Assembly (NCBI GenBank): GCA_951406725.2
Contig: OX597823.1
Location: 92,256,001-92,320,000 of the forward strand
Direction: 5' to 3'
Length of the DNA: 64,000 bases
Origin: Octopus vulgaris
Lineage: Eukaryota
Part shown: positions 39,333 through 40,199 of the stretch, piece after piece
How the letters are laid out: each line of letters begins with the position of its first letter
Numbering within the stretch: position 1 is the stretch's first letter
Position numbers and translations under genes: made by a program
Notes under the pieces: model-generated
Database searches by the model: none
Seen by the model: only the letters and a program-made list of their open reading frames with translations
Told to the model about the DNA's origin: nothing

Positions 39333-39480
39333 TGTGAAATAGAAAGATGAATAATCTTGTTGCAGATTAATCAAAAGTTTAACCGATACCTTGGTAGCAA
39401 AAATCACAGCAGAAGACAGCACGGTTGGAGGTACAACCATATGGTGTTGCAACCATGCGTTGGTGCGGATAATTGAATTT

Positions 39481-40199
39481 TAATATTATTAGTGAATTGA
39501 AGAAATGGAGTTGAACGAAGATTGAACAGAAATCGTTTTATTGCATTCTACACGTGTTTCGAAAGCCACAATTTACCAAATTCCGATTGAATAAGGAGAC
39601 CATATTGTGTCTTTCTCTTTAGGAAGAAATAGGAAATCCGTTGGAAAAAACAAAAACAGAACAGAGGCGGAGCAAAACAAATCGAACGAGGCTCCTAAGA
39701 GCCCATGGCCAAACTGTTTATCAATGTATGTTGAAAACGGGTGGTGGGTGCGTTGAAGATTTTAACAGGTCAGGCAGCGGTCATTCCGGTGGGTGAGAGC
39801 ACGGGGTGCTTAGATGTTCTTTGTGACCGAGACTAAAGAACTTTAGTCTCGGTCACAAAGAACATCTAAGCACCCCGTGCTCTCACCCACCGGAATGACC
39901 GCTGCCTGACCTGTTAAAATCTTCAACGCACCCACCACCCGTTTTCAACATACATTGATAAACAGTTTGGCCATGGGCTCTTAGGAGCCTCGTTCGATTT
40001 GTTTTGCTCCGCCTCTGTTCTGTTTTTGTTCTTTCCAACGGATTTCCTATTTCTTCCTGAAGAGAAAGACACAATATGGTCTCCTTATTCAATCGGAATT
40101 TGGTAAATTGTGGCTTTTCGAAACACGTGTAGAATGCAATAAAACGATTTCTGTTCAATCTTCGTTCAACTCCATTTCTTCAATTCACTAATAATATTA
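39481..40199. repeat. Near-perfect DNA palindrome (about 358-bp arms, 2-nt spacer)
   Basis: Centre GACTAAAG-AA-CTTTAGTC at 39831-39848; arms are reverse-complementary out to TAATATTATTAGTG / CACTAATAATATTA, with three differences seen by eye. Confidence 0.97.
40054..40134 (+). ncRNA. Type I hammerhead ribozyme with long stem II and palindromic stem III
   Basis: TTC-CTGAAGA-GAAAGACACAAT...ATTGTGGCTTTTC-GAAACACGTGTA-GAA; GUA cleavage site; AATAAA just downstream. Confidence 0.75.

Follow-up and report, generated by a model that had tools for sequence, protein, structure and literature searches.

A near-perfect palindrome in Octopus vulgaris and the Hydra-like Penelope-like element family from which it very probably derives

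The palindrome and its hammerhead motifs

The analysed window is a 64,000-nt stretch of Octopus vulgaris DNA (assembly GCA_951406725.2, contig OX597823.1, positions 92,256,001 to 92,320,000 of the forward strand), and all coordinates count from its first letter. It contains a palindrome flanked by a (TA)n tract on one side and a (TATG)n tract on the other; the features of the locus are listed in Table 1. The arms, 39481-39838 (358 nt) and 39841-40199 (359 nt), align with three differences: two substitutions (39648/40031 and 39620/40059) and an additional T that lengthens the right arm's T run preceding GAAAC. Their pairing is far above chance, as evidenced by a 277-nt arm pair with 99% identity. 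The alignment agrees with an earlier note on this DNA, which had also recognised the TA-rich microsatellites and a continuation of the left arm by about 150 bp; the latter is a 148-bp extension and corresponds to the tail of the repeat family described below. The AA at 39839-39840, which separates the aligned arms, had been taken for a 2-nt spacer. Comparison with family copies revealed that family sequence runs through these bases, and that the right arm begins at 39837 and has AG in common with the end of the left arm. The two bases are part of the right arm and do not represent a foreign spacer.

Table 1 Features of the palindrome locus. Positions refer to the window.
Feature	Positions	Strand	Evidence
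(TA)n microsatellite, left half of likely target site	39166-39332		Repeat annotation; 61/73 sampled loci TA-flanked
148-bp tail, the family's 3'-most segment, on one arm only	39333-39480	-	40/40 scored matches at 99-100%
Tailed arm, last 506 nt of the element 3' UTR	39333-39838	-	98.8% to natural copy L047
Type I hammerhead motif, private G5A at 39620	39546-39625	-	Pattern scan, core counts, subfamily copy
Head-to-head junction: AG (39837-39838) in both arms, AA from right arm; genome-unique	39837-39840		
Tail-less arm, corresponding to element positions 510-149 counted from its 3' end	39837-40199	+	
Type I hammerhead motif with intact core; additional private T in stem II	40054-40134	+	
(TA)/(TATG)n microsatellite, right half of likely target site	40198-40288		

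Neither an open frame nor a family protein match was found within the 64-kb window, no host exon was recognised at 34000-46000, and no target duplication is readable inside the TA repeat at this locus. Short frames at 36003-36269 and 38239-38634 (minus strand) and at 40998-41228 (plus strand) look, by eye, like decayed remnants of mariner-type transposases and LINEs. Five neighbouring window frames had no match in Pfam.

The amount of change private to the locus (about 0.4%) suggests, from the sequence, that the insertion is young. The region 39560-39900, which contains the centre, is high-copy repeat, to which 1,871 pieces of public short-read contigs from four DNA-type runs aligned. The 32 pieces listed there are 58-87 nt long; none of them carries a joint or a bridge over the centre, and no empty target allele was seen among pieces of this length in such a repeat. 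Near-perfect symmetry between microsatellites, together with the lack of a bridge in public contigs of a high-copy repeat, would fit a single-arm insertion turned into a palindrome by a fold-back artefact of the library or the assembly. We consider such an artefact very improbable, given the three private differences between the arms, the tail on one arm only, the flanks that differ on each side, the family sequence that is continuous through the centre and the recurrence of the same tailed/tail-less geometry at 45 loci.

Each arm contains an outward-reading type I hammerhead motif with a palindromic stem III, and these are the only two matches of the pattern scan in the window. The right-arm core consists of CTGAAGA at 40057-40063 and GAAA at 40120-40123, followed by the palindromic stem III; GAAACACGTGTAG starts at 40120, so that the GUA triplet ends at A40131, and AATAAA comes next. 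In the left arm, read on the minus strand, G5 is replaced by A (39620). The G5A change inactivates hammerheads. The earlier note had placed the core, the G5 position and the cleavage triplet correctly, and two of its readings need qualification. Stem I, given as 3 bp, can be extended past a bulge in a constrained fold. The right hammerhead, described as intact, is so in its core, but its stem II has an additional, private T; four T residues occur there in 2 of 179 fetched copies, a set biased towards intact cores.

Rfam models identified no hammerhead at E values up to 5 (0 of 29 matches), and the miRNA-type matches obtained correspond to the hairpin centre and the microsatellites only. The hammerhead assignment is based on the pattern scan and on likeness to the Hydra-clade table in the accessible part of PMC8557442.

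The intact 25-nt core has 1,837 exact copies in the 2.8-Gb genome. The G5A form occurs twice, and one of the two is the left arm. At the three sites where the arms differ, another subfamily member, located on contig C9, shows the family state throughout; each difference is therefore private to the palindrome locus. Since G5A is found in 2 of 1,839 cores and the C9 copy retains the family state, the pairing of an intact and an inactive ribozyme bears no sign of design. The motifs are passengers of the 3' UTR, and G5A arose once, during or after insertion.

Folding predictions bear on what a transcript might do. The right hammerhead fold alone is predicted to lie 5.4 kcal/mol above the best fold of the motif. 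The hairpin formed by the whole unit has a predicted energy of -707 kcal/mol and pairs the ribozyme core, and forcing the hammerhead within it is predicted to cost 130 kcal/mol. The self-duplex of the palindromic stem III is predicted at -10.3 kcal/mol. A transcript spanning both arms is thus predicted to bury the ribozyme. Double-stranded RNA with a self-cleaved end, as envisaged in the earlier note, is unlikely as stated, and in these models double-stranded RNA and self-cleavage are likely alternatives for such a transcript. RNA contigs were sought on the right flank (40290-41700) and found in 0 of 3 runs guessed to be RNA, a weak result; one DNA run covered the flank.

Minimal PLE (Penelope-like element) hammerheads are reported not to cleave as single motifs and to cleave weakly as dimers (PMC4209133, in the part available). 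The octopus motifs are similar to the minimal hammerheads of Cervera & de la Pena 2014 in having an extra base preceding G10.1:C11.1 and a long helix II, and to minimal metazoan PLE hammerheads in having a palindromic helix III suited to dimers (PMC4209133). In contrast, the two motifs of the palindrome are on opposite strands and cannot form a tandem dimer on one RNA.

A protein-coding parent family

The arm is the 3' UTR end of a young and abundant protein-coding PLE family. A search of the 2.8-Gb genome with the arm returned 1,820 candidates, with 44 scored places at 98-100% identity. The 148-bp extension has 1,149 genome candidates and directly adjoins the arm in most copies. In copies L089 and L093 the same arm and tail are joined to a 908-codon open stretch. 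Parent units are 3,620-3,730 nt long, and family open frames end about 970 nt ahead of the 3' end. The palindrome is very probably a 5'-truncated insertion of this family with an inverted copy. A Penelope-like origin with an inverted 5' copy had been proposed in the earlier note and is supported. The arrangement, in which an inverted 5'-truncated copy is accompanied by a one-sided tail, is a published one (PMC8557442, PMC3846280, as far as these texts are accessible).

Across all fetched loci, five open frames of 879-904 codons were identified. Over 10 pairs of these frames, pN/pS ranges from 0.25 to 0.59 in the RT, from 0 to 0.53 in the endonuclease part and from 0.37 to 1.67 in the linker. 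The family may be mobilised in trans by a canonical Hydra-type protein, such as that of the L098 family described below, but the selection acting on the open frames favours the view that their protein works in cis.

The predicted protein structure, obtained with a 47-sequence alignment, has a mean pLDDT of 77 and features two disordered inserts. These low-complexity regions correspond in P0004 to residues ~492-561 (RT thumb region) and ~636-765 (linker between RT and endonuclease). All seven best PDB matches of the model in Foldseek are telomerases (TERT; best E 2e-9). No GIY-YIG structure was among the matches listed in this whole-protein fold search; at the C terminus, however, the GIY-YIG residues AVY..YVG, R, E and N align with those of relatives, and PF01541 has weak matches in 3 of the 47 alignment members (best E 1e-4). 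No Pfam match was obtained for any of three family proteins, and a sequence-profile search of the PDB with a family protein returned none. Database relatives amount to 441 proteins at E <= 1e-20. Among the 120 listed, most have about 700 residues and are 30-43% identical to the family; the only informative name comes from a cephalopod.

Several loci are of separate interest. L177/L178 (G000:C1:119513400-119532000) is a head-to-tail array of full-length units with a period of 3624 and an open 895-codon frame. It is a candidate source locus for the family, and the sole arrangement seen in which two hammerheads are in tandem on one RNA. Beside a main-family copy, L098:3706-5889 (minus strand) carries a second, more canonical Hydra-type family with a 727-residue open stretch and the motifs RWK, DKT, CRLC and CRH; it is 34% identical to the main family, and its own hammerhead motif is present twice. 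An RT fragment at L041 was considered as the family RT and rejected: similarity to the family stops at L041:1600, and this fragment (L041:1557-2102, minus strand) derives from another, much larger repeat family (7,177 candidates) abutting the family copy. The 3' UTR upstream of the arm contains internally repeated blocks (L089:3000-3260 and 6240-6540), and deletions between such blocks are observed in several copies (e.g., L014, L045 and L119).

The family has the features by which EN+ PLEs are recognised, namely a telomerase-like RT in a single ORF, a GIY-YIG-type endonuclease at the C terminus, partial-tandem or inverted terminal repeats with an optional tail and, in these repeats, a type I hammerhead motif. 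Within EN+ PLEs it resembles, by its motifs, the Hydra clade, whose members have a C-terminal endonuclease and whose traits were listed by Craig et al. 2021 (PMC8557442); named Hydra proteins were compared by eye. Similarities to the clade, which includes Penelope-13_HM and Hydra-1_Obim, are DKT, GLYRDD and FDVxMG, the lack of CCHH, C-terminal CxxC and CxH motifs, a type I hammerhead near the 3' end and a (TA)n target (PMC8557442, accessible part). DKT, which replaces DKG, is found at position 126 of the family protein and in all 120 listed relatives. The C-terminal motifs are CNLC at 868 and CPH at 896 in four of the five open copies (L089 features FPH). The (TA)n preference is marked: (TA)4+ occurs within 30 nt on both sides in 61 of 73 loci and on at least one side in all 73, against a random-window background of 4.2% and 11.3%, respectively.

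In contrast, three listed traits of the Hydra clade do not apply (PMC8557442). The unit, at about 3.6-3.7 kb, exceeds the usual size of <3 kb. RWK is replaced by RWL (at 41 in P0003 and P0004), R[WF][KR] being present in 110 of the 120 listed relatives. The CxCX5C linker motif is absent from all five open copies, which feature instead a disordered Ser/Asn/Gly-rich stretch of 155-164 residues with one cysteine; C.C.{4,6}C is found in 110 of the 120 listed relatives, and of the ten others three end ahead of the motif and seven have a wider spacing. Hydra-1_Obim differs from the family, by eye, in both hammerhead and protein sequence (PMC8557442). The closest parallel to the linker is provided by the asparagine-rich inserts of Adineta Pen2a, which are likewise of low complexity, lie between RT and endonuclease and keep the frame open (PMC3846280, accessible part). 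The octopus insert is however shorter, is fixed in 5/5 open copies, in a family that counts more than a thousand insertions, and coincides with the loss of the linker cysteines. In the literature covered, outside which most subscription papers fall, PMC8557442 was the only paper found on octopus Penelope hammerheads.

Head-to-head insertions in a sample of the family

We built 73 loci from the core matches on contig C1, using the first 100 in the list and leaving out L178, which continues the L177 array. Of these loci, 50 are head-to-head with one junction. Five were dropped: L140 and L189 have a microsatellite between the arms, L160 and L170 are multi-part, and L181 consists of two tail-less arms and is a counter-example to the rule that follows. 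Each of the 45 kept loci features one tailed and one tail-less arm, and in 43 of them the tail-less arm ends 148-160 nt from the element end. Units organised like the palindrome are thus routine in the family. The arrangement is known from published EN+ PLE insertion units, which share the head-to-head inverted 3' ends, the tail on one arm, microhomology at the junction, the microsatellite target and the hammerhead in the terminal repeat (PMC3846280, PMC8557442, parts available); the published tail measures 30-40 bp, in contrast with about 150 nt in this family. Penelope-13_HM similarly has an inverted 5'-truncated copy and a hammerhead on both strands (PMC8557442).

A ribozyme is present on both arms in 22 of the 45 loci, and 16 of the 22 resemble the palindrome locus in having no coding sequence. 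Scaled up from the C1 sample, in which 100 core matches yielded 16 non-coding units with two ribozymes and 7 near-symmetric units, the genome would contain a few hundred units like the palindrome. The 16 units, and the window in which neither an open frame nor a protein match was detected, could be read as pointing to a fold-back ribozyme element, non-coding and non-autonomous in the manner of a retrozyme or MITE, whose mobile form is the palindrome and in which one hammerhead is active and the other disabled. The earlier note had inferred a non-coding fold-back ribozyme retroelement and had suggested a genome-wide search to see whether the fold-back centre recurs. The centre occurs once only in 2.8 Gb, junction centres differ at every sampled locus, and the arm belongs to the 3' UTR of a coding family. 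Moreover, G5A is present in 2 of 1,839 cores, and the palindrome has no tandem monomer repeat; animal non-LTR retrozymes are non-coding tandem monomers each carrying a type I hammerhead, whereas the palindrome is inverted (10.64898/2026.07.22.740005, part available). An element moving as a palindrome is hence scarcely credible, and we return to the truncated insertion of a coding PLE.

Among flush joins, 30 of 34 overlap by at least 2 bases, compared to 16% by simulation, although the overlaps may be slightly inflated, having been derived from BLAST alignment ends with whichever of four natural copies was nearest as the reference; at the palindrome the overlap is AG. Eleven joins carry 2-20 extra bases, some of which are locally repeated. 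Junctions of L122, L136 and L172 contain short inserts repeating neighbouring sequence, which we take to resemble the templated inserts of polymerase-theta end joining.

Arms of the same locus differ by 1.0 per 140 nt, compared with 6.4 between loci, and have subfamily markers in common (22 of 23 chosen loci were usable). Later gene conversion could also account for similarity within a locus. Where both arms extend past the ribozyme, the tailed arm is longer in 10 loci, the tail-less arm in 9, and the arms are equal in 3. An apparent excess of loci with a longer tail-less arm (27 vs 15) was set aside as a sampling effect, being reduced to 10 vs 9 once both arms must pass the ribozyme. Arm lengths are more than 50 nt apart in 30 of the 45 loci. 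Near-symmetric arms are nonetheless in excess, with 7 of 45 loci, including the palindrome, within 12 nt, as opposed to 1.8 by permutation. None of the 90 arms ends near the cleavage site (210-225 nt from the element end), and just 22 end in the ribozyme region; the arm ends thus show no trace of cleaved templates.

Proposed formation and implications

Two-ended target priming followed by microhomology joining is the account that we favour, and it probably explains how the palindrome was formed. The GIY-YIG domain would cut both strands of a (TA)n target. From one of the target's 3' ends, reverse transcription would begin at the outermost base of the tail; from the other it would begin some 150 nt deeper in the element, either on a single shared RNA or on a second RNA of common origin. 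The two cDNAs would pass the hammerhead, still uncleaved, and terminate at a distance of roughly 510 nt from the element end, and they would then be joined through the 2-base microhomology, probably by host end-joining. In vitro, the PLE protein of Anolis cleaved the two strands and extended each of them, initiated synthesis at two internal sites that delimit the tail, and accepted uncleaved RNA (PMC11167929, accessible part). No report of twin priming with microhomology in Penelope elements was found in the literature covered, to which most subscription papers do not belong.

Alternatively, one strand may prime itself by folding back, the tail difference arising when the ends are resolved. 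Self-priming with an antisense template has been proposed for Adineta Penelope palindromes at inverted junctions (PMC3846280, part available), and in the octopus family it finds a counterpart in the near-symmetric excess among the 45 loci, in L115, L143 and L168, where equal arms are centred on a self-complementary stretch, and in the minus strand at the palindrome centre, which can fold into a 2-bp stem with a 2-nt loop. However, a lone folded-back tail-less cDNA cannot supply the tail, because it has no template for it; at the palindrome the tail-less arm is the longer one, so that the fold-back copy would have no tail template. Moreover, either arm may be the longer across the sample, and most loci have arms of clearly unequal length. 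As a general explanation, self-priming appears doubtful. The near-symmetric excess is not predicted by independent stopping and leaves room for self-priming or for coupled synthesis by a dimer, either of which may make some of the units. For the palindrome itself, two-ended priming is preferred.

The palindrome alone is of little import, and the interest lies in its parent family. Craig et al. linked the linker motif to microsatellite targeting, and in the accessible part of the same paper the origin of the inversion and of the tail is called unresolved (PMC8557442). The octopus family allows PLE junction rules to be counted, and offers a natural experiment on the dependence of (TA)n targeting upon the linker cysteine motif. 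We are inclined, with some reserve, to the view that this is an undescribed Hydra-like PLE family that lacks the linker zinc-finger motif and keeps its (TA)n targeting, which would argue against the motif aiming PLEs at microsatellites, and that its hundreds of young head-to-head insertions record two-ended priming and end-joining. The many short perfect hairpins could also feed small-RNA silencing of the family. If the view is correct, these young insertions would provide a large natural data set on PLE inversion and tail formation.
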